Below are positions 21,657 to 56,246 of a stretch of 64,000 nt of DNA, one piece after another; the first letter of the stretch is position 1; each line of letters starts with the position of its first letter. The notes beneath the pieces are model-generated. The model was not told where the DNA came from. It saw only the letters and a program-made list of their open reading frames with translations, and ran no database searches. Location of the stretch: contig NC_043013.1 in NCBI RefSeq assembly GCF_006345805.1, positions 42,594,001-42,658,000 on the forward strand, in the 5' to 3' direction. Origin of the DNA: Octopus sinensis. Taxonomy: Eukaryota. The translations under genes were made by a program, and so were the position numbers.

Positions 21657-23575
21657 CCATTCTACTAAAGGCACAAAGAGGGAAATTTCAGAGAAGGGAC
21701 TAGTCAATCACATCAACCCCAGTACTCAATTGGTACTTATTTTATCGACCCCCAAAAGAATAGAAGGCAAAGTCAACCTCGGTGGAATTCAAACTCAAAA
21801 TGTGAAGACTGATAAAATACTGCTAAGTATTTTGCCCAGTAAGCTAACGATTCTGCCAGCTTGCTACCTTAATAATAATAATAATAATAATCCATTCTAC
21901 TAAAGGCACAAAGAGGGAAATTTCAGAGAAGGGACTAGTCAATTACATCAACCCTAGTGTTTCACTGGTACTTAATTTATCAACCCTGAAAGGATGAAAG
22001 CCAAAAGGGTTTTCCAAGATAATATTTACATGCTGTTATTTAAAGTTTTATATGTACTTCAGGATCCAATTCCAAAAAGCAACTACACACACGCTGTTTA
22101 ACAGTGTGTGTTTAGGAAGGCCATCAGGCCAAAGGAATTATGCCAAAGCAGGTACTGTGGCTCAGTGCAGTATTCTGACTTCACATCCTGTTGAACCATC
22201 CAATCCACAGCAGCATGGAAGAGGAGCACTTAACAGTGATGATGATTACATACATATATCAGACTGGAGCTGGGTACAGGTCTCTGGCTTACCAGTCTTG
22301 GTCAAACCTTCTAACCCATGCCAGCATAGAAAACGGACATTAAATGATGATGAAGATATGTATATATGTGGTACAGCCTGGGTGTGGAACCCAAGTTTCA
22401 AATCTCAATACATTATTCAATTACATTTCATAACACCTCTTATATTTTCGCGGGGTTCCACTATTTCCCTTCTCTCTCTCCCTCTTTTACGTTGTCTGCC
22501 ATCCCCCCTCTTCCTTTGCTAAGAGCATTTTTAAGCCAGCCCGTCATATTCCCGGTGCACCCGCCCTTGCCCACCCCCACCACCAATACCGGATATCTCT
22601 ATATTTTTGCTCCATCTATACCGGATGTCGCTTCTCCCACCACCATTATAGGTGTCTACTCTTCGAACCCCCCTCTTCAATACGCTATTTGACCATGCAT
22701 TACCCCTATCTTGATATCCTACGTTCTACTTGCCTAGAACCTGTCATCATTTCTCTGAACCACCCCTCCCCACTGGTGCTCCCCTATATTTCTCCCCCCC
22801 CCACATAAAAAGCACCATCCGAACGTGGCCGATGCCAGACCCCTCTGGCACCTGTGCAGGTGGCACGTAAAAAACACCCACTACACTCGCGGAGTGGTTG
22901 GCGTTAGGAAGGGCATCCAGCTGTAGAAACACTGCCAGACTAGACTGGAGCCTGGGGCAGTCCCGAGCTCCCCAGACCCCGGTCGAAACCGTCCAACCCG
23001 TGCTAGCGCGGAAAACGGACGTTGAATGATGATGATGATGATGATGATATATATATATACACCATGAATGTAGGTTTATGTAAATTTGGTGCTTATTCAG
23101 GTCTCACATGACATGTAACAGTTTCAACTTAAAGAGTATTCCAATTTCCACCAAAACCAAATTTGCCTCTTTACATATTCACTTCACTTAGCCAACGACA
23201 AAAAAAAAAAAAAAAATTAAATTTCTGATTTTTACACATTTGTTTTATCCTCACCTACACCCTTCACTAACACAACCCTTTTTTTTTTACCCTTTAGCAT
23301 TCAGATTACTCTGTCAAATCTAATACTTATTTATTCACATTCTTTTGAATTATTCATGTAGCTAAGAAATTTCAATAATGTGATTGCTAATTATTAGAAC
23401 GACATTGTAGGATAGGTGCAAGAAGCTAAATGTGGCCAGTTTGGATATAAAACAAGTAGAATATTTTGGTAAAATATGGCCAAATTAAATACTAAAGGAT
23501 TAAACCCTTTCTTTACTTGAAATATTTCAGATAAAGGATTATCAACTCCCAGTAAGACTGAATTATTATATAACA

Positions 23576-28742: not shown

Positions 28743-29358
28743 TACTGTTATTGGTTTCGGCCAGAATCTGTGACCATGTTGGGGAATCATTTCCTTTGTT
28801 TAGACATAAAGCCAGTGATTTTGGGAAAAGGAGATTAGTTGAGTACTGACCCTCAGTACTTGGCTGGTTAGGGTTATATGATATTGAGCCTCCACCTTCC
28901 AGCTAAGAGTACTTGGTCTAGTGGTGAGAGTGTTGTGCTCACAATCACAAGACCATAGTTTCAATCCCTGTGTTGTGTGTGTTATGTTTTTGAGCAAAAC
29001 ATTCCATGCCGATCTGCAATCACTTTGACATCTGACGTGTGGTACACAGTGCACCTGTTCAGGTAACATCGACTTGATGGAGAGGAAGTGAGCTAATGCA
29101 CAGCACGTACATTTGATCGCTATAAACAAATCATTTGTGCAAGTCGTTCAGCCAGTAATTGCGAAAACCATCTTTCTCGGACTACGAGACACCAATATCA
29201 TACTGACTCCCAAACGGATGCAAGACAAAGTTAACCTTGACAGCATTTAAACTCAAAATATAAAGAGTCATAATGGTAATTTATTACAGAATTCTACTTG
29301 CTTGGCAAATAACTATGACTTCTACAATAATACTATTTACACCTTCAATGCATTACAT

Positions 29359-30296
29359 CAGTGATTCTCAACTGGGATCTATATGGCCCTTGTGGATGCA
29401 TGTGGCCCTTGGAGATTCATATAAGATTTCGTTGTTAAAATTTATGTGTAATAAATTGGTTATCAAGAAATCCTCTTGCGAGCGTGACCTAGGCATCACT
29501 GTCAGCAGTGATTTGCGTTGGTCAAAGCATATCTCTAAGATTGTCAGGAAGGCCGAGGGTGTCTTGGCATCACTCAGCAGGTCTTTTGTTAGCCGCTCTC
29601 CAGCCATCTATTTAAAACTGTATACAGCTATGGTACGACCACACTTGGAATTCGCATCATCAGTTTGGAACCCCTATCTTGCACAGAACATTGACCTCCT
29701 GGAATCTGTCCAGAGACGTGCAACCAAACGCATACCCTCCATCAGACACCTACCATATTCTGAGCGCCTTGTTTCCCTGGGCATGGATTCACTGAAGCTC
29801 CGGCGTTTGGCGACGGACTTGGTAAACACCCACAAAGTTATCAACCACCTCACCAACAACAACACTGAACACCTTTTTGATCTCCATGTGTCTAACACAC
29901 GTGGACATGCCTACAAAGTCAGAAAACAATACAGCTCCCATGACTTTCGGAAACATTTTTTCACGCTCAGAGTTGCTGAAGCATGGAATAAACTGCCTGC
30001 GTCAGTTGTTGACTGCCATGACACTGCATCTTTTAAGGCCCTCATGCTTTCCGAAATCCGCCGAAACTACACCTGATTATATATACACTTTAGATGAGTT
30101 GTAGTGCACCTGAGCACTGTACACAATTATTATTATTATTATTATTATTATTATGCTTCTACAACACACAAAATATTTTAGCAATTATTTTTATACAATT
30201 CCTAATATTTGGTTATAAATGAATGGCTATGAAGGTCCACCTGGGTAAAATAGCAATCGCAGAGATCCATAGACAAGAGATGGTTGAGAGCTACTG
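29359..30296. mobile_element. hAT-type MITE interrupted by the CR1 LINE
   Basis: TIR CAGTGATTCTCAAC...GTTGAGAGCTACTG; 8-bp TSD CATTACAT/CATTATAT; the two halves are collinear with the copy at 47642-47894. Confidence 0.8.
29461..30153 (+). mobile_element. 5'-truncated CR1/L2-type LINE (ORF2 C-terminus, 3' UTR, (TTA)n tail)
   Basis: ERDLGITVSSDL...LYTAMVRPHLEFASSVWNPY...LESVQRRATK...FFTLRV..WNKLP uninterrupted to stop 30076; (ATT)n tail to ~30153. Confidence 0.93.
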
Positions 30297-34434: not shown

Positions 34435-34835
34435 AGTTCTATATTTAAAAGATGAGGAATTATGTACATTATTTACAATTGACGGATATTTGTCCTCATC
34501 TTGTTTGTTGTTAACACAACGTTTCGGCTGATATACCCTCCAGCCTTCATCAGGTGTCTTGGGGAAATTTCAAACCTGGGTTCTCATGCCTAAGGTATTT
34601 TTCGATATTATTATTATTATTCAGGTTGCTGCCTGGAATCGAACTCGGGATCTTGGGGTTAGCAGCCTGCGCTCTTAACCACTATGCTATATGCCCAACA
34701 TTGAAAAATACCTTAGGAATGAGAACCCAGGTTCGAAATTTCCACAAGACACCTGAGGAAGACTGGAGGGTTGTGTTAACAACAAACAAGATGAGGACAA
34801 ATATCCGTTAATTGTAAATAATGTAAATAATGTAC
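34435..34835 (-). mobile_element. Composite non-autonomous retroelement: tRNA-derived head + (TAA)n + hammerhead-bearing body + inverted partial copy of the body
   Basis: 10-bp TSD GAATGACTTC (34425-34434 and 34836-34845); inverted arms ~34464-34609 and ~34697-34835; tRNA-like segment 34696-34622 with A box TAGCATAGTGG and B box GAGTTCGATTCC. Confidence 0.85.
34513..34558 (-). ncRNA. Minimal hammerhead ribozyme motif
   Basis: GACAC-CTGATGA-A-GGCTG(gagggtatat)CAGCC-GAAACGTT-GTGTT: helices I and II pair, helix III reduced to palindrome AACGTT; extra A after the core and GUU site are non-canonical. Confidence 0.65.
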
Positions 34836-37787: not shown

Positions 37788-38590
37788 CTGTTGGATGAAA
37801 CGAAAGGAATGTGTAAAGCATAAACAGCACAAACAATACTTTATTCTAAAACATTTGACATCAGCAGTGTTTTCATATAACATAGTGCAGCTACACTAAT
37901 AATTAATATATATATATAAAATATAAAAATATAAAAGTTATTTAATGGCTTTACACTTGTGTTAGGTCTAGACTGCTTACTGTATATGCCACATTAAGAA
38001 GTAAGGATATTTCAGTAATATGCTTCAGTTGAATTCTAACAGTTTATAAAACATTTTGACTTGCTCCCTTTCAAATCTGGCCTACTTAATTTGCACATTC
38101 TTTACATAATTGTGGAGAAAAACATCCAAAGTTGTAGAAGAAAACCCAATGCACTGATATTTTATACTCTTCAGTTGTTATTAAGAATTACGTTTAGTTT
38201 TAAGAGACTTGAAACCTGAAAAACAAAATTCCTTTTCCTTAACCCTTTCAATACCAGCCTGGCTGAAACCACCTCTGGCTCTGTAGTACAAATGTCTTGT
38301 TTTTATAAGTTTTGAATTAAAATCTTCCTCCAAACCTTAGTCACTAGCTTAATGATGTGCAGATTTAATATAGACAAAAACCGAATGCATTGCAAACGAC
38401 AGGATCAAAATGTTGGCAGATGTATGCAGGAGAGATGGTACATGAATATAATGCATGTTCAATGAAAAATTTCTGTGAATTGATTGCAGAAGATAATGAT
38501 GGAACAAATGTAAATAAGAGCTAGCAAACTGAGGCAGCAGCAGAGAACATTTGGTTAGTTATTAGGCATCACTGAGGAGATTAAGATTAA

Positions 38591-38812
38591 CCCTTTCAAT
38601 ACCAACCCAGCTGAAACCAGCTCTGGCTCTGTAGTACAAATGTCTTGTTTTCATAAATTTTGAATTAAAATCTTTCATCAGACTTTAGTCACAATTTATT
38701 TTCCTAACACTAGCTTAATGATAACTAAGTTATTTTACTAAATTCTTTGTTATTTACAAAATTAATTGAACGATACACAGAGCATCTCAAAATGAATATG
38801 GCAATGAAAGGG
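38591..38812. mobile_element. Second TTAA-flanked MITE family (partial copy from 38238; relatives ~16780-17003, 18709-19205, 21310-21445)
   Basis: TTAA-CCCTTTCAATACC...GCAATGAAAGGG-TTAA. Confidence 0.75.
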
Positions 38813-41441
38813 TTAATATGCTAAAATTATGACAATATAACTTGAGCCTTGCTATAAAAAATGTCATGAGCACAGCAGAGAAAATGCCTAAGTTGTAACG
38901 AAAAAACTTCATTGAATGATATTTTATTCAGTTCGGTTATTATTTTGAGAATTATATTTAGATTTAAGACAGTTGAAACCTTAAAAAAAAAAAAAACTCT
39001 TTTTCCTTACATGCTAAAATTATAATACAGCTCTCTGTTTATGAACAGGCACAGCTGTGTGATAAAAAGTTTGCTTCCCAACCACATGGTTCCAGGATCA
39101 GTCCCACTGCATGTCACCTTGGGCAAGTGTCATTTACTGCAGTCTTGGGGCAACCAAAACCTTGTAAATAAATTTAGTAGACAGAGACTGAAAGAAGCCT
39201 GCCATGTGTGTGTGTGTCCCACCACTTGATAACCAGTGTTGGTTTGATTACATTCCCTTAATGTAGCAGTTCAGCAAAAGAGTCTGATAAAATAGGCACC
39301 AAGCTTAAAAAAAATTATTGGGGTTGATTCATTCAACTAAAATTCTATACGGTGGTAACCCCAGCATGGCCACAGTCTAATGATTGGAACAAGTAAAAGA
39401 TAAAAGATGCTATAAAAATAATTAAAGTTCTAGAGAAAAAAATCCCCATGCAACAGTATTTTGTTTAAAATTGTTTTCAGACTATAAACTACATTGAAAG
39501 ACATGGAGCATGGAAAACAGTGATTTCCCTTATAAACAAAAATTATGAAGCTGTATTTCCTCGGCTTAGAAAATGTCATCCATAAACACAGATAAATTAT
39601 GCACAAGTTACAGAGAATAAAATGCAATGCAGTTTGTCTTTATTTTATTTGTAAGACTTGAAAAACAAGGAAAGAATTTTTTTTTCACACTAAAACTATG
39701 ACAACCTGAAACATGAGAAAAGAATTAATTTCTCTTGCAGACTAAAATTATGACACCACAAATGTTGCCCATGAGCATAAATAACCATTTGTTTTAACTT
39801 TCCAAATATCCTCCTATATGGAAATATAGCTGTGTTTCCAGCCGATTCTCATATTGATTTTATTTTGGATAAATAGGAGAGAGGAAAAGAGAGAGATCAT
39901 AATCATTAGTTTAATGTCTGCTTTTCTATGCTTGCATGGGCTGGATAGATTTTACTAAGGTAGCTTTTTTTTTTCCCCCTCACAGCCAGATGCCCTTCCT
40001 GTTGCCAACCTTCACCTGTTTGTACAGAAGGGAATATTTCCCCACAGAAGAGATAAAAAGGCAAAGTGAAATCCTAACACGCTAAGAACAACCAAGAGGA
40101 TTTTAGAGAGCAAAAAAAAAATAAAATAGAAAAAAATCCTACTTAAAATATATTTAATACAATCACTATTCAACATTCATTTCAACACTACCTCCAACAC
40201 TTTAGGTAACCATACGCTTTAATTTGATTCTTTTACTCTCTTACTTGTTTCAGTCATTTGACTGTGGTCAAGCTAGAGCACCAGGAATAAGTCTCTTTTG
40301 TCAAACTTTTAAGTTACAGGGACATAAACACATCAACACTAGTTGTCGTGGTGGTGGGGAGCAAATACAAGCACGCACACACATTATACGTACATACATA
40401 CGACAGGCTTCTTCCGGCTTCCATCTACCAAATCCACTCACAAGGCTTTGGTCGGCCCGAGGCCATAGTAAAAGACACTTGCCCAAGGTGCCACACAGTG
40501 GGATGGAACCAGGAACTATGTGGTTGAGAAGCAAGCTTCTTACCAACAGCTACATCTGCGCCAAAGTTTTTTGGGTTTTTTTCTTCTTTTTTTTTTAATA
40601 AAGAGGCTTGAAATAAATTATGCAAAACATCCAAGTCATAAACCTTAGGTGTTCTCCAAACCCACACTGCTGATTTTCTCTGCAAAATCAAAGTAACTGC
40701 AGCCAGTCAAAGATATGAGCTCTGCAAGGTGGGGGTGACTGTTGCAGCAAATGTTGTTGGCCAGTCTCCACAGCAACCCGATTGCAATCATGTCCACAAG
40801 GCAAACATGACTGTTCTATGGTGTACAACCCATTTATTCTCAACATTACTCCCCCCACCTCCTTTTTTCTTTTATTATTTTTGTTCCCTTGGTGAGGTAG
40901 TTATGAGGTGGGCAGGTCTCTAATTTGATCTTTCATACTTTTAATGTGTTTTTTTCTTTCTATAAAACTATGTTGTTAATAAAATATAATTCATAATATT
41001 CTTACTGAAATAATATATCCCAACATGTTACATAATAGATTGGATCAAAATTTAACAATAAAGCCAGTATATAACATTTTTTTTTTTTACTGTATACAAT
41101 CATATTACTGCAATTATATAAATGTACATATAGACAGTGAGGTAGCAATTACATAAAGCTAGACAGGAGTTACTTAGCAAGACAGGTGGATGGTAGGGAG
41201 ACAGGTGCTGAAAGGAAGGGCCATTAGTGTAATGCACTTCAACAAATAGTTTCTGAGATTGGAGTTTTGATTATATAGATATACATATAAAAATGTATAT
41301 CATCATTATCATTTACCATCATTCTTTTCATGCTGACTTGGTTGGATGGTTTGACAAGAACAGAGGAGCCAGAAAGCTCCAGCAGGTTCTATATCTTCTT
41401 TGGCATGGTTCCTACAGCTGGATCCCCTTCAAGCTCCATTT

Positions 41442-41493
<52 letters not shown>

Positions 41494-41704
41494 TATGTGA
41501 AATAGAAAGATGAATAATCTTGTAGTAGATTAATCAAAAGTTTAACCGATACCTTAGTAGCAAAAATCACAGCAGTGAACAGCACGGTTGGAGGTACAAC
41601 CATCTGGCGTTGCAACCGTGCGTTGGTGCGGATAATTGAATTTAAAACATTATTGGTGAATTGAAGAAATGGAGCTGAACGCAGATTGAACAGAAAACGT
41701 TTTA

Positions 41705-41793
41705 TTTCATTCTACACGTGTTTCGAAAGGCACAAATTACCAAAATCCGATTGAATAATGGGACCATATTGTGTCTTTCTCTTCAGGAAGAAA
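41705..41793 (-). ncRNA. Mirror copy of the hammerhead motif, sense to the LMBR1 pre-mRNA (intron 2)
   Basis: Exact reverse complement of 41935-42023 in the left palindrome arm. Confidence 0.8.
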
Positions 41794-41934
41794 AAAGGAA
41801 ATCCGTTGGAAAAACAAAAACAGAACAGAGGCAGAGCAAAAAACAAATCGAACTGTGCTCCTCTTAGGAGCACAGTTCGATTTGTTTTTTGCTCTGCCTC
41901 TGTTCTGTTTTTGTTTTTCCAACGGATTTCCTTT

Positions 41935-42023
41935 TTTCTTCCTGAAGAGAAAGACACAATATGGTCCCATTATTCAATCGGATTTTGGTAATTTGTGCCT
42001 TTCGAAACACGTGTAGAATGAAA
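41935..42023 (+). ncRNA. Type I hammerhead ribozyme motif (Penelope-type, minimal helix III)
   Basis: Helix I TTTCTTC/GAA(T)GAAA; CTGAAGA 41942-41948; helix II GAAAGACACAA/TTGTGCCTTTC (10 of 11 pairs); GAAA-C-ACGT-G-T-A with palindromic tetraloop; GUA site at 42013-42015; AATAAA at 42022. Confidence 0.8.
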
Positions 42024-42076
42024 TAAAACGTTTTCTGTTCAATCTGCGTTCAGCTCCATTTCTTCAATTCACCAAT

Positions 42077-42124
<48 letters not shown>

Positions 42125-45039
42125 GCATGTGAATGTGAAGGTGCATGGCTCAATGGTCAGAGCATCAGATTCACAGTCATGAGGTAGAGAGTTTGATTCC
42201 TGGACTGGGCTGTATGTTGTGTTCTTGAGCAAGACACTTTATTTCACATTGCTCCAGTTCACTCAATTGTAAAAATGAGTTGCGACGTCACTGGCACCAA
42301 GCTGTATCAGCCTTTGCCTTTCCCTTGGATAACATCGATGGTGTGGAAAAGAGAGCTGAGTATGCATGGGCAACTGCTGGTCATCCATAAACAATCTTGC
42401 CCAGACTTGTGCCTTGATGGGTAACTTTCTAGGTAGAATGCCATGGTCGTTTATGATTGAACAGGGTCTTTTTTTTTCTTTTATTAGGGTATTCACTTGT
42501 TTGTCGAGGGTGCTGCTTTTCTCCACATATGAATGTAGGAGTCAATATCTGATCAGGAAGTGAAGCAATTCTGTAGATTTTTTGGGCCCCTTTCCACTAC
42601 AACACCAGAACAACCAGGGGCTACCCACCAATGTAGGCAACAAAACTCCCACACAACAGTATGTGTGTGTGTGTACACACACATATATTCTGCACACTTT
42701 TTGATCTCTTATCCCTATTTTCTACTATATTCCACTTGTGCCTTGAGAGTACACCTTCACAATCTCTTTCTCTCTTCCCATCTGGGGAAAATATATATCT
42801 CTTCTTCAGCAAGACACGTATTTCTGTCCCTCCATCATACTTTAACCTCTCAACATAAAGCATAAAGCCACCTCCCTCAATATCACACCACTGTCCCAGT
42901 CATCAAGAGATCTTGTCTTGCAAGTTACTTGGTGACCTCAGTGGTGTTGGCACCATGAAAAGAAGCACCCAATACACTCTGTAAAGTGGTTGGTGTTAAG
43001 AAGGACATCCAGCTGTAAAAACCATACCACAGTAGACAGTGGATTTCACAACAGCCATCCAATCCATGCTAACATGGAAAGCAGATAAAAGCAGATATTA
43101 AACAATGATGATGACGATGATAAATGTATACAAGATTTTTAATAAGATTTGTCACAAAATTTATGAGCTGTAAATCGAATGGATCCTAATATTTCAAGGA
43201 CAGGCCCTTGCACAATATTCCTGTCAACTAAACTAAATCTTAATCAAAATTTCATTATGTACACTTTATTCTTAAGAGGTGTTTGGATGGTGGACATAAA
43301 CATTCAGTTCAACATCAACACTTGGCCTTTAGCAGAGCCCATATATTGCAAGCATTTAGACCAAGTTTGCAATTTGTGGATAACTTTCACCCACTTGCTT
43401 AAAAAGCCATGTAAAGAGCATTTTCTTTTTCTAACTAAACCACTTTCTTTTTTCTAACTGAACCATTTTCTTTTTCTAACTAAACCATTGAAAAAATATA
43501 TAAGACATAATACACATTTATGAGAACATTATTTCAAGGACTGGGTACCAATAGCTTCTTATCTAAAACTTACCAAGAAGACAACTTCATTAGAGGGAAC
43601 ACTTGTCCAGAAGCCACTTGCATGAGATCATTCACCCTGAGGTCACCTACATGGGAGAGTGTCACTCGTCCAGTATGAACAGACACACATCTAGTGGCCA
43701 CCAGTAAAGGATACACGCACACAGTCGCCACCAGTAAGGGAAAGATACATACACATACAAACAGGTACTTAAAAGAGTTGCACAGTTGTTTCCAGTAAAA
43801 CAGAGTCACCCAGCTGCTAGCACTAAGGGGAACACAGCCATTCTCAGCATCCATCTGAAACACTAACCCAGTTATCACCAGTAAAGACAGCACAGGCACT
43901 TAGACATTACCTATAAAGAGCCCATCACCAATGGCATTGAAAAGTGGTACAAGTGCATTTCCATAGAGACCAGCTTTAGAGAGGAAATACATTTCTTCTA
44001 CTGCCAGGCACTGAGACGACCAAATAATTCATGGCATCATTAAAGAAAGGAAGTCCTTCAATTCTTATCAAGTGACTAACAAAGTCAGCCAGTAGTATAT
44101 CCTCTACCTTATACACAAGCTTCTAGTCAGCACTTAGCTAACCTCAAACACTACTAAACAGCAAAACAGGAGGAGAGAGAGAAAGTACAACAGTTTATAT
44201 ATAATCTTAATTTCTTGGACATCAATCAAATTTGACCCTCTCCTGGTGTAGGTCATGAGAGGTTAATAGTAAGGAATTAGTAGAACAACAAAACTAACAT
44301 TTTCCATACATTGGATAATGGTTTCAGCCACTAAAACTACGTATGGAACCAAAAGTGGAGCTAGAAATGAACTAAAAGTGAACCAAGAATGGAACTCACA
44401 CATGGACAGAGTGCAGAAACAGGTGTAGAGCCCAGGTGTGTACCAAATGTAGCTATTGTGACACTAGCACAAGATAGAAATAATCATAGCGAAACTATAC
44501 AAAATGTTAAACACTTGGATCACTCTTTCTTCTACAGAAGCAGGTTTCTCTCAAATTCACTCCCTCCAAACGAGTCCACTCTCTATTCACCAGAAGTGAA
44601 TAACTATTGGACTAGCTGCTCAAAAGCCAAGTGTTCAAATCCACTGCAAGCATTTCAATGCATTTCTGTGTAGAAACCTTTATTGCTCATGGCTCCCAGT
44701 TCATCTGGATGTCAAGGAAATAAACTAAATCATTTGCAATAGATCAGACTCCTACCCATGGAGAGGAGAAAAGATTTATCTTTCATCTGCTTATTATAAA
44801 ACTGGGGCTAAGCACAGGCCCTTAACAGTTTCTTCGGGGTTTTGTAGGTATATACATTATAATCACTAAACCTACAATAATTAAAACACAATTTAAGTTA
44901 GTATATCACAAACTAAAAAGATTGAGAATGGGCCCTAAGAGCTAGCTTGCTCTGTCTCTCTCTCTTATTGCCATCTATATTAAATATCTGGAAAATTTCT
45001 TTTCCATGACCAATTCCTCCCACTTTACCATTGAATAAC

Positions 45040-46318
45040 ATGATGACAATGATGATAACAATTACGATGATGATGATGATGATAATTACGATGATGATAA
45101 TTACGATGATGATAATTACGATGATGATGACGATAATTACGATGATGATCACGATGATCACAATGATGATAATGATGATGATGATAACAATGGTGATGAG
45201 GAAGACAGTTACGGTGACGATGATGATGGCAATTATGACAATGATGATGGCAATTATGACAATGATGATGGCAATTATGACAATGATGATGGCAATTATG
45301 ACAATGATGATGGCAATTATGACAATGATGATGGCAATTATGACAATGATGATGGCAATTATGACAATGATGATGGCAATTATGACAATGATGATGGCAA
45401 TTATGACAATGATGGCAATTATGACAATGATGATGGCAATTATGACGCAATCATGGTGATGATGGGAATTATGGTGATAATGGCAATTATGATGATGATG
45501 GCAATTATGATGATGATGGCAATTATGATGATGATGGCAATTATGATGATGATGGCAATTATGATGATGATGGCAATTATGATGACGATGATGGCAATTA
45601 TGATGACGATGATGGCAATTATGATGACGATGATGGCAATTATGATGACGATGATGGCAATTATGATGACGATGATGGCAATTATGATGATGATGATGGC
45701 AATTATGATGATGATGGCAATTATGACAATGATGATGGCAATTATGACAATGATGATGGCAATTATGACAATGATGATGGCAATTATGACAATGATGATG
45801 GCAATTATGACAATGATGATGGCAATTATGACAATGATGATGGCAATTATGACAATGATGATGGCAATTATGACAATGATGATGGCAATTATGACAATGA
45901 TGATGGCAATTATGATGACGATGATGGCAATTATGACGACGATGATGATGGCAATTATGATGCAATCATATGATGATGGGAATTATGTTGATGATAGCAA
46001 TTATGATAATGATGGCAATTATGGTGATGATGGCAATTATGGTGATGATGGCAATTATGGTGATGATGGCAATTATGGTGATGATGGCAATTATGGTGAT
46101 GATGGCAATTATGGTGATGATGGCAATTATGGTGATGATGGCAATTATGGTGATGATGGCAATTATGGTGATGATGGCAATTATGGTGATGATGGCAATT
46201 ATGGTGATGATGGCAATTATGGTGATGATGGCAATTATGGTGATGATGGCAATTATGGTGATGACGATGATGGCAATTATGGTGATGACGATGATGATGG
46301 CAATTATGATGACAATTA
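45040..46318. repeat. Compound minisatellite of 18- and 21-bp units built on GATGATGGCAATTAT
   Basis: Blocks of GACAATGATGATGGCAATTAT, GATGATGATGGCAATTAT and GGTGATGATGGCAATTAT, apparently derived from (GAT)n. Confidence 0.97.
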
Positions 46319-46488
46319 TCAACACTTGTTTTCACCGATTCCCTCTCAAATAGATAACCCCACCCTGACAAACTAACTTCAGTCAGTTATGAACTGCCAC
46401 AACCATCAACTGACCCTCTCATACTCTCACCAAAAATACGAGCCCCCACCTATTCATGAAAAGAAAGACAACAAAAAAAAAGACTTAC

Positions 46489-49259: not shown

Positions 49260-50715
49260 TTGGTCCCCTTTCATCTACTCTGAGAGGATCAACATCTTGA
49301 GGTCAGTCTTCACCACTATGTCCCACATCTTTCTAGGTCTACCTCTTCCACAGGCTTCTTCCACATTTAGCAATTTCACTTATTTATACAGCTGTCCTCA
49401 TCCATCCACATCACACAATCATACCAACACAGTCTTCTCTCCTGCACATCACATCTAATGTCTCTTATGCTCAATTTTTCTCTGTTGTATATGTACACTG
49501 ACACTGCACACGCATTGGGGGATACTTGTTTCATTTCTTTAAAGTCTTTACATGTTTTCTGCATTCACAGCCCAAGTTTCACAGCTATGTAGCATTGCTG
49601 TTTGTATGCAGGCATCATACAATCTACCTTTCATTCTGTGAGAGAGGCCTTTTGTTACCAACAGAAGTATAAAAGTTCTCTGAACTTTCTCCAACCAATT
49701 CGTATTCCAGCAACTATACTTTCAGAGCATCCTCCTCCACTGCTAATTAGGTCACCTAGATAACAGAAACTATCTCCTATTTCTAGGGAGCCACCTGAGC
49801 ATTTCAAAGCATCTATTTCCCATGTGCCTTTATTATTTATTGCTCCTGTAAATCTACCACAAACAAATTCTATTTTCTCTGTTAACCTTCCTGTAATTCC
49901 ACTGTGCCTCTTCTGCGTCCATAGTTTGCACTGAGCATACCATATAGAATTTCTACTTACACCTTGTCTACAAATGGAACAGAGCCATTTACCCAAAGGG
50001 AATAGTGTTCTGTTTTCTGGCTAATTAGAACATGGTTGCTAAATTAACTTTAAGACCCTTTGATTCCCAGTTTTGTTTACACAGCTATAAGAACAAAGTC
50101 ATCAGCATAAAGTAGTTCCCATAGGCAACCAGTCTTGAAGTCCTCCATTAAATAAGAGGGGACTAATAACTAAACCTTGATGAACTCCTACCTGCACACT
50201 TAATTCATTGCTGTACTTATTGTTAAATCTCACTTTGCTAACAGCATCCTCGTACATTGTTTGAACAGCTTTCACTAGCCATTTATCTACTCCCAGCATT
50301 CGCAGTCACCAGTCGTCGTCGTCGTTTAACGTCCGTTCTCCATGCTAGCATGGGTTGGACGGTTCGACCGGGGTTCTGGGAAGCCAGAAGGCTGCACCAG
50401 GCTCCAGTCTAATTTGGCAATGTTTCTACAGCTGGATGCCCTTCCTAACGCCAACCACTCCGTGAGTGTAGTGGGTGCTTTTTACATGCCACCTGCACAG
50501 GTGCCAGGCGGGGCTGGCAACGGCCACGGTCAGATTGGTGTATTTTATGTGCCACCGGCACGGAAGCCAGTCGAGGCGGTGCTGGCATACATGAGGAATT
50601 GATGCACCCTGTCAAAGGCTGTCTCTGGGTCAACAAATGCTAAGCACAGTGGTTTACTTTTTGCTAAATATTTCTCCTGTAGTTGCCAGATTATAAAGAG
50701 ACCATTAGCAATGTT
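49260..50715 (-). mobile_element. Decayed RTE-type LINE reverse transcriptase fragment, interrupted by a SINE at ~50312-50590
   Basis: VQVGVHQG..ISPLLF, Cys-rich insert C..C..GV..NSI....CKLW, DSFCYLGD.I, IGWRKFRELL, RRLCWY motifs; frameshifted. Confidence 0.85.
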
Positions 50716-54994: not shown

Positions 54995-56246
54995 TTAGGT
55001 TATCCCATAAATAATGCAGTTTTTCAATTGCATGAACTAAAAATCGGAAGGGGACAAGATAAACTACCTGCATCAATTTGCTATAAAAATAGTAATTTTA
55101 CCTTGTCCTTATTCTTAGTGCAAGTTTTGAAGAGTGCAGTTCAATTTTAACAGTTATTTTTTCAAAGCTATAATGGAAGTGACAAAGGAGTATATTCGGC
55201 ATATTTTGCTTTATGAGTTCAATAGAAGTAATAATGCAACGGAAAGTGCAGGAAAATTAATGCAGTATATGGGAATCAGACAATAGGCGTAAGCCAGTGT
55301 CAATGGTGGTTCCAGAAATTCCAAGCTAGGAATTACAGCCTAGAAGCTATGTAGAGCTTGACAAAGACATCCTGGTGAAACTAAATTCCATTGTAACTGT
55401 TGAGGAACTAGCAGAGAGGCTTGGATTTGGTCATTCAACTGTTCATTGACATTCATGTGCCATCAGAAAAGTCAGCAAATTGGGTCACTGGGTTCCTCAC
55501 AAATTTTCTGAGTTTAATCACATGCAGAGAGTGAATGTGTAATCTTTGCTGTCACGTCTCACAAATGAACCTTTTTTGCACCGAATAGTGACTGGTGACG
55601 AGAAACGGATTCTCTATAAAAATGTCAAGTGCCGATAACAGTGGGTAGGGAAAGGAGAAACACCAGCACACCAGGCTAAAGAAGGTCTTCACCCACATAA
55701 GGTGTTATCTGTGTGGTGGGATATGAAAGGTTTAGTCCACCTTGAACTTTTAAACCCAACACAAATGATAACAAAGGAGATCTATAGTGAGCAGCTTGAG
55801 TTGCTTAAGTCAGCACTAGAAGCAAAACAACCATCTCTGGTTTCAAGACAAAAGGTGTTCTTCCATCAGGATAATGCTCAGCCACATACAGCGAGGATAA
55901 CTTTTCAAAGGCTGGAGAAGTTTGAACGAGAAATGATGCCCCATCCACCATATTTGCTGGACATTGCCCCATCTAATTATTATTTATTCTGCAGTCTTCA
56001 AAATCATTTGGACAGAAAAAATATGAATTCTGTAGACGAGATCAGAACAGTGCTGGAGGAGTATTTTTCATCATGGGAAAGTGAATTTTGGAAGAGGGGG
56101 GGGGGGCCTTGCAAGTCTACCAGATAGATGGAAGAGTATTGTAGAAAATGAAGGAGAGTATATTTTAGATTAAAAAGGTACTATGTCTTAATTTTGACAA
56201 ATAAAAGAAGTATGAAAAAAATCACATTATTTACGGGATGACCCAA
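54995..56246 (+). mobile_element. Full-length decayed mariner transposon (~1.25 kb)
   Basis: Imperfect TIRs TTAGGTTATCCCATAAATAATG / CATTATTTACGGGATGACCCAA, TA on both sides; empty-site paralog at ~58570-58837. Confidence 0.95.
55173..56173 (+). pseudogene. Mariner transposase pseudogene
   Basis: MEVTKEYIRHILLYEF start; WVPH, IVTGDEK, HQDNAQPH, HPPYLLDIAPSNYYLF motifs; ends EGEYILD*; stops and frameshifts present. Confidence 0.93.

Follow-up and report, generated by a model that had tools for sequence, protein, structure and literature searches.

Penelope-like elements (PLEs) account for 6.83% of the Octopus vulgaris genome, where 190 families and 336 recently active insertions were counted (PMC13282606). 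The insertion unit of these elements has been described as carrying an inverted, 5'-truncated copy adjacent to its 5' end, a tail of 30-40 bp at one end, and hammerhead ribozymes in its pLTRs (Craig et al., 2021, PMC8557442). According to the same source, insertions of Naiads are biased to (TA)n and those of Neptune to microsatellites, and Naiads are described there as having no canonical hammerheads. The pLTRs are about 200 bp long (181-218 bp in Adineta) and the inverted copies overlap the direct one; palindromes where inverted pLTRs meet head to head were interpreted as the result of self-priming, with an antisense strand as the template (Arkhipova et al., 2013, PMC3846280).

Pairs of hammerheads on opposite strands, 100-700 bp apart, have been ascribed to truncated PLEs (Cervera & de la Pena, 2014, PMC4209133). 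Retrozymes are another group of small elements with hammerheads, arranged as head-to-tail tandem repeats that yield circRNAs (Cervera & de la Pena, 2020, PMC7229834; bioRxiv 10.64898/2026.07.22.740005). As to the mechanism of insertion, a Poseidon protein can nick both strands of AT-rich sites in vitro and extend them, and two reverse transcription start sites delimit the tail (Frangieh et al., 2024, PMC11167929).

The locus analyzed here lies in a 64-kb stretch of octopus DNA (the window). An exhaustive scan of the window detected a perfect inverted repeat (41643-42085, 443 bases) with two arms of 220 nt, no mismatches, and a loop of 3 nt, as had been claimed in a previous reading made from the sequence only; the runner-up in the same scan was a 25-nt repeat of (TA)n. 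The (TA)n tracts that this reading placed on both sides were also recovered (Table 1). The insert is asymmetric, with a 149-bp segment lacking a mirror copy between the left (TA)n and the palindrome; the coordinates given in the sequence-only reading took in this extension, and its description left it out. A blastn search revealed no second copy of the element in the window, and a target-site duplication is not readable in the (TA)n target. The left (TA)n region (41438-41496) consists of 2.2 copies of a 27-bp unit with one interruption, which could be explained by target duplication or slippage. A dispersed repeat family starts directly after the right (TA)n (42121-42420, with copies at 23562 and 62641 and 82-90% identity), and its start looks tRNA-derived.

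Two segments of the window matched Pfam LMBR1, and one exon shared 98% identity with a protein cluster that bears the name limb region 1 homolog of Octopus bimaculoides; as these clusters are built at 90% identity, the species of the matched protein is not fixed. The limb region 1 homolog protein mapped collinearly between 46582 and 6708 (minus strand), and the palindrome falls in the intron between two of the mapped exons. The location had been given as LMBR1 intron 2. The flanking exons agree with an LMBR1 intron; residues 1-23 of the protein were not found in the 64 kb, and the number 2 therefore assumes that they are on a single upstream coding exon. The same intron holds a 1.3-kb compound ATG-rich minisatellite with periods of 18-36 (45040-46319), about 170 bp downstream of the exon that encodes residues 24-54.

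Table 1. Features of the palindromic insert, its flanks and its host intron (positions in the window)
Feature	Position	Strand	Basis or details
Host intron of octopus LMBR1 (limb region 1 homolog) holding the palindrome	37788-46488	-	Flanking exons
LMBR1 exon, residues 24-54	46582-46489	-	Protein mapping
LMBR1 exon, residues 55-65	37787-37757	-	Protein mapping
Left (TA)n tract, one interruption, likely insertion target	41442-41493	.	Repeat scan
One-sided extension ("tail"), 149 bp, same repeat family	41494-41642	-	Family contigs end here too (41495, 41497)
Left arm, 220 nt, minus strand is sense, truncated pLTR-like, continuous with tail	41643-41862	-	Inverted-repeat scan, family contigs
Centre: 3-nt loop (41863-41865) and 2-nt overlap (41861-41862)	41861-41865	.	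Family continuation in X16 and X12 contigs
Right arm, 220 nt, exact reverse complement of left arm, tail-less, abuts (TA)n at family-recurrent terminus	41866-42085	+	Inverted-repeat scan, contigs
Right (TA)19 tract	42084-42121	.	Repeat scan
Type I hammerhead motif, minus copy	41710-41789	-	Core 41786-41780; predicted cut after 41713
Parts of minus-copy hammerhead		-	Helix II 41779-41769 with 41735-41725; GAAA 41724-41721; helix III and loop 41721-41714
Type I hammerhead motif, plus copy	41939-42018	+	Core 41942-41948; predicted cut after 42015
AATAAA after hammerhead	42022-42027	+	Mirror copy 41706-41701, minus strand

The search with a type I hammerhead descriptor returned exactly two sites in the window, +41942 and -41786, compared with 0.13 per shuffled window (30 shuffles). 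Both motifs face outward from the palindrome centre, and they count as a single event because they are one motif, mirrored. The core is CUGAAGA, followed by helix II and GAAA. In helix II, 10 of the 11 positions pair, the first pair is G10.1-C11.1, and a loop of 33 nt is enclosed; the fraction of spacer shuffles with a helix as good was 0.0006. Helix III has 2 bp and a 4-nt loop, both within 8 self-complementary nucleotides for which pairing between two molecules is predicted at -10.3 kcal/mol. GUA serves as the cleavage triplet; helix I comprises 3 bp, or 3+4 bp if a bulge is allowed, and AATAAA begins 7 nt past the triplet. The hammerhead core (CUGANGA, GAAA, and NUH) and its three helices are present, and we consider the motif a putative ribozyme. 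The descriptor and the core letters of the Rfam alignment confirm the earlier claim of a full core on each strand, and the computed anatomy agrees with the helix II of 10/11 bp, the palindromic helix III loop, and the downstream AATAAA that had been noted.

The check with Infernal that the sequence-only reading proposed was favorable as to the core and unfavorable as to the score. Rfam Hammerhead_1 aligned to 41936-42021 with the core letters matched, at 14.8 bits (E 0.55), and did not reach the gathering threshold of 34; in this model helix II is short, and 51 nt of the octopus motif are handled as an insert. No hammerhead was present among the 89 Rfam matches of the whole-window scan. The miRNA matches over the palindrome were discarded as generic hairpin matches below gathering. 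An exact-pattern scan for the hammerhead segment gave no hits in metagenome contigs and none in viral contigs; distant blastn gave no plasmid match, and the plasmid collection thus offers no hint of such an origin. The predicted active monomer fold has -13.5 kcal/mol versus -16.9 for the minimum-energy fold, and the predicted active dimer -42.1 versus -45.3.

With the metazoan PLE type I hammerheads, in their variants whose helix III is small and palindromic (PMC4209133), the octopus motif shares the CUGANGA/GAAA core, G10.1-C11.1, a long helix II, a short helix I, the palindromic 15.2-16.2 positions with loop 3, and the arrangement as opposite-strand pairs 100-700 bp apart. It differs from those described there in its helix II of 11 bp with one mismatch, in an unusually large loop II of 33 nt, and in the GUA triplet.

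The window contains an older, imperfect inverted repeat at 34459-34831, with 123 of 131 aligned arm positions identical and, in addition, a 16-nt gap. It has a minimal hammerhead motif at -34553, unlike that of the palindrome, and the 16-nt deletion in one arm falls in its hammerhead; Rfam called no hammerhead at 34.5 kb. The two repeats had been said to differ in sequence, and blastn gave no match between them. The center of the older repeat, about 95 bp, resembles on the minus strand a tRNA-derived SINE head, with A-box-like and B-box-like segments, and has an (AAT)n end. Its origin may be the later insertion of a SINE, or else a PLE derivative with a Pol III head. ARAGORN detected no tRNA gene in the window, and neither ARAGORN nor Rfam called the SINE-like head. 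Other remnants are a mariner-type transposase fragment at 55639-56124 (Pfam Transposase_1, E 4.6e-20) and two long open frames, 29264-30073 (+) and 49658-50305 (-), which by eye resemble remnants of LINE reverse transcriptases. The first of these frames had no Pfam match at E 0.1, and the scanned part of the second gave only a sub-threshold, unrelated match.

To describe the repeat family, we used 41494-41880 (387 bp) as query, which extends 15 nt into the second arm and contains no unique flanking sequence. This stretch was contained in 20 of the 24 listed public runs (19 with at least half of the 36 sampled words), from 10 studies and under 9 organism labels; none of these runs is on record as RNA, and for X15 RNA is no more than a guess. 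Contigs of four of the 24 runs (X1, X12, X15, and X16) were aligned to the stretch, and 18 of the 7148 aligned pieces and 13 of the 58 loose-end rows were listed. A total of 6232 contigs of X1 and 868 of X16 aligned, with summed depths of about 10^6 and 10^5, depth not being a copy number. These contig counts, together with the variant letters, indicate a very abundant repeat. X12 and X15 each had a single contig of about 345 nt (41497-41841 and 41495-41842, respectively) with three differences, so the palindrome copy is ~99% identical to them. The family is dispersed, multi-copy, and young. Our literature search retrieved no description of it; it may already sit among the 190 Penelope-like consensuses of O. 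vulgaris.

Position 41643 was joined to (TA)n in at least 12 contigs of X1 and at least seven of X16, and at least four more of X16 had this junction at 41646. Since the end of the arm is repeatedly joined to (TA)n, as it is in the right arm of the palindrome, the boundary of the tail is a feature of the family and the extension is a defined tail. The ratios of tail depth to arm depth differ between X1 and X16.

At the other end, at least three X16 contigs run beyond 41862 into other sequence, and the X12 contig has 135 loose letters from 41841, with a few differences. The continuation of the family begins with AAGAG, which equals the palindrome loop plus 2 nt when these are read on the minus strand; the probability of this by chance is about 2 in 1024 (simple arithmetic), and the continuation is read from four contigs among the 13 of 58 loose-end rows listed. 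The tail-less arm thus follows the family for 225 nt and the tailed arm for 220 nt, with an overlap of 2 nt (41861-41862). The family sequence at the junction (41857-41862 and its continuation) can form a stem of 4 bp with a 4-nt loop, a possible pause site or fold-back hotspot, and the palindrome center corresponds to the product of that 4-bp-stem fold plus a 3-nt duplication.

At 41697 the palindrome has a letter that at least 99.7% of the X1 and X16 depth, as well as the two single contigs, do not share; it nevertheless recurs in mirror position at 42031, and therefore both arms derive from one template. The variants listed at a frequency of at least 5% in the family contigs comprise 11 substitutions and two indels. 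None of these 13 is in the 47 core and helix positions, a depletion that is not significant (P 0.16), and there is no covariation to score because no such variant falls in the helices or the core.

From these data, we consider it probable that the palindrome is a young copy of a very abundant octopus repeat that bears a hammerhead, likely the 5'-truncated pLTR plus tail of an endonuclease-bearing PLE, and that the mirror arm was made during insertion into (TA)n. The features expected of endonuclease-bearing PLEs that we found are the head-to-head inverted pLTR, in which each arm is cut short compared with the family sequence that goes on upstream, the hammerhead motif, the (TA)n target, and the dispersed family. 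The sequence-only reading had proposed a recent Penelope-type inverted pLTR insertion, and the abundance and youth of the family, its recurrent terminus joined to (TA)n, and the one-sided tail argue in its favor, as do the 2-nt overlap at the head-to-head junction and the PLE-type anatomy of the hammerhead.

With the described PLE insertion unit (PMC8557442; PMC3846280), the element shares inverted arms about 220 bp long that face each other head to head, a junction overlap or palindrome, an extension at one end, an AT-rich or (TA)n target, and a hammerhead in the pLTR. The octopus insert differs in being a stub with no ORF between the arms, in its tail of 149 bp versus 30-40 bp, and in its overlap of merely 2 nt. 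With the Poseidon element PAc of Anolis (PMC11167929), it shares a tail set by two family termini, an AT-rich target, and the hammerhead in the pLTR; the PAc ORF starts within the hammerhead and the PAc tail is short, whereas we found no ORF start in the octopus insert. The full type I motif argues against a Naiad PLE, since Naiads are described as having no canonical hammerheads (PMC8557442). As in non-LTR retrozymes, the element is short, non-coding, and low in GC, has a type I hammerhead, and likely depends on the PLE machinery. Unlike the retrozymes described (PMC7229834), it is a single head-to-head inverted unit with one motif per strand and no release of a monomer between two cuts on the same strand. 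The identity as a non-LTR retrozyme was rejected, as the palindrome locus has no head-to-tail tandem unit.

The search for the parent RT/GIY-YIG ORF was negative, with no ORF in the insert and no credible homolog of a 72-codon open frame that spans the tail (41711-41496). A frame of that length appeared in 19% of the shuffles. Tested as the N-terminus of a PLE, it gave 0 of 19 candidates that passed, no Pfam match, and a best atlas score of 0.76. Its sole phmmer match among 1.84 billion (P0001) was rejected as a repetitive singleton with four weak stretches. Three of the seven family variants in the frame were synonymous, too few for judging whether it is coding. As the parent element with RT and GIY-YIG was not found, the membership in PLEs is based on non-coding features.

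The absence of an ORF homolog and the very high abundance would also fit a short non-autonomous PLE derivative or a MITE-like unit with a fixed 5' end, in which the palindrome or half-unit would itself be mobile and mobilized in trans. Non-autonomous PLE derivatives with hammerheads have been described (bioRxiv 10.64898/2026.07.22.740005), the aligned depth drops steeply over 41832-41870, and the X15 contig stops at 41842. However, in X12 the family goes on for at least 135 nt after 41841, and in X16 it crosses 41862, which makes the palindrome center a truncation point, and the element has no tandem arrangement, unlike non-LTR retrozymes. The cut reference and the divergence of the last 20 nt would also lead to such a drop in depth; for this reason, a fixed 5' end inferred from the fall at about 41845-41870 was not accepted. 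We regard a mobile unit of this kind as improbable.

The PLE insertion that we favor probably proceeded as follows. The PLE endonuclease would nick both strands within the (TA)n microsatellite. Primed by one of these nicks, cDNA synthesis would begin at the proximal start site and produce the arm without a tail, which runs on the minus strand from 42085 to 41861. In this direction the sequence is antisense to the element RNA, the orientation expected of a first cDNA that was primed in the right-hand (TA)n. This first cDNA may have stalled after about 225 nt, folded back via 2 bp around the 3-nt loop, and copied itself to produce the perfect arm. Such self-copying would account for the 3-nt loop, the perfect identity of the arms, and the mirrored rare letter. 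Simple fold-back leaves the tail unexplained, so the model needs an extra step: as the tail is missing from the fold-back template, a second cDNA would supply it, primed from the opposite (left) nick at a distal start 149 nt further 3', and the folded-back strand would anneal to this second cDNA.

A different origin of the arms would be the joining of two ordinarily diverged arms by microhomology, without fold-back, or their later equalization by gene conversion or repair, and the loop may have flipped after insertion. An overlap of 2 nt also fits the end-joining of two cDNAs, conversion would mirror the rare letter at 41697 too, and the tail sits on the arm that simple fold-back would not supply. 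Nevertheless, the two truncation points are within 5 nt of each other, which would be rare if they were independent, and the ~99% identity of the copy to family contigs leaves little time for conversion. Arm identity was not maintained in the older repeat at 34.5 kb. Joining or conversion seems quite unlikely to us.

An artefact of the assembly, through a fold-back chimeric read or polishing, is very unlikely: such structures do trouble assemblers (PMC8557442), and no aligned contig crosses the loop, but the mirror ends exactly at the terminus that other contigs join to (TA)n, the two flanks differ, the LMBR1 exons are in order across the site, and polishing with family reads should give the majority letter at 41697 rather than one found in <0.3% of the depth. 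The depth at 41871-41880 was 0 in the contigs of the four aligned runs, and the junction is thus confirmed in the assembly only.

The 0 differences in 220 nt bound the divergence of the arms at about 1.4% (95%). Taking the calibration of a distance of 0.065 at 18 My (PMC13282606), we calculated an age of less than about 2 My, provided that no conversion occurred.

The folding predictions suggest that the ribozyme is silent in the host transcript. The element on the minus strand is predicted to fold as a single 220-bp hairpin (-425 kcal/mol), and the duplex of the hammerhead region with the antisense arm has a predicted -166 kcal/mol versus -13.5 for the active monomer. In the LMBR1 pre-mRNA, the antisense arm is transcribed first, and the sense motif is therefore predicted to be trapped in the 220-bp duplex. 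The host transcript would remain uncut, and the sense-strand AATAAA would be sequestered as well. A 2017 paper reportedly deals with dimeric PLE hammerheads. The sequence-only reading had noted that Penelope-type hammerheads tend to cleave as dimers; this does not apply at the palindrome locus, where the two motifs have no dimer option in cis because each lies on a different strand and a transcript running through the loop would pair one with the other. The hammerheads may be passengers of the pLTR. Published PLE hammerheads cleaved weakly in vitro (PMC4209133), and the insertion of PAc did not require hammerhead cutting (PMC11167929).

The architecture of the octopus insert is that known from the PLE insertion unit, and the palindrome is probably one more PLE-type inverted stub, notable for its long tail and the polarity of its junction. 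The formation of the tandem and inverted structures of PLEs has been called unresolved (PMC8557442), and this copy is a clean specimen for that mechanism, since a prediction that can be counted follows from its junction polarity and long tail. Tentatively, the junctions of the family may record the order of PLE integration: the tail-less arm would always be the first cDNA, folded back on a micro-stem of 2-4 bp, and the long tail of 149 nt would come from the second cDNA at the opposite nick. If this is true, the polarity rule could be counted directly in an octopus assembly and would address the origin of the inverted pLTRs and tails of PLEs. The palindrome gives an example of a self-cleaving motif on the sense strand of a host intron without a predicted cost. 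By the same tentative reading, the family would spread long and perfect dsRNA hairpins through introns; these would silence the ribozyme that they carry and may feed cephalopod ADAR or Dicer.
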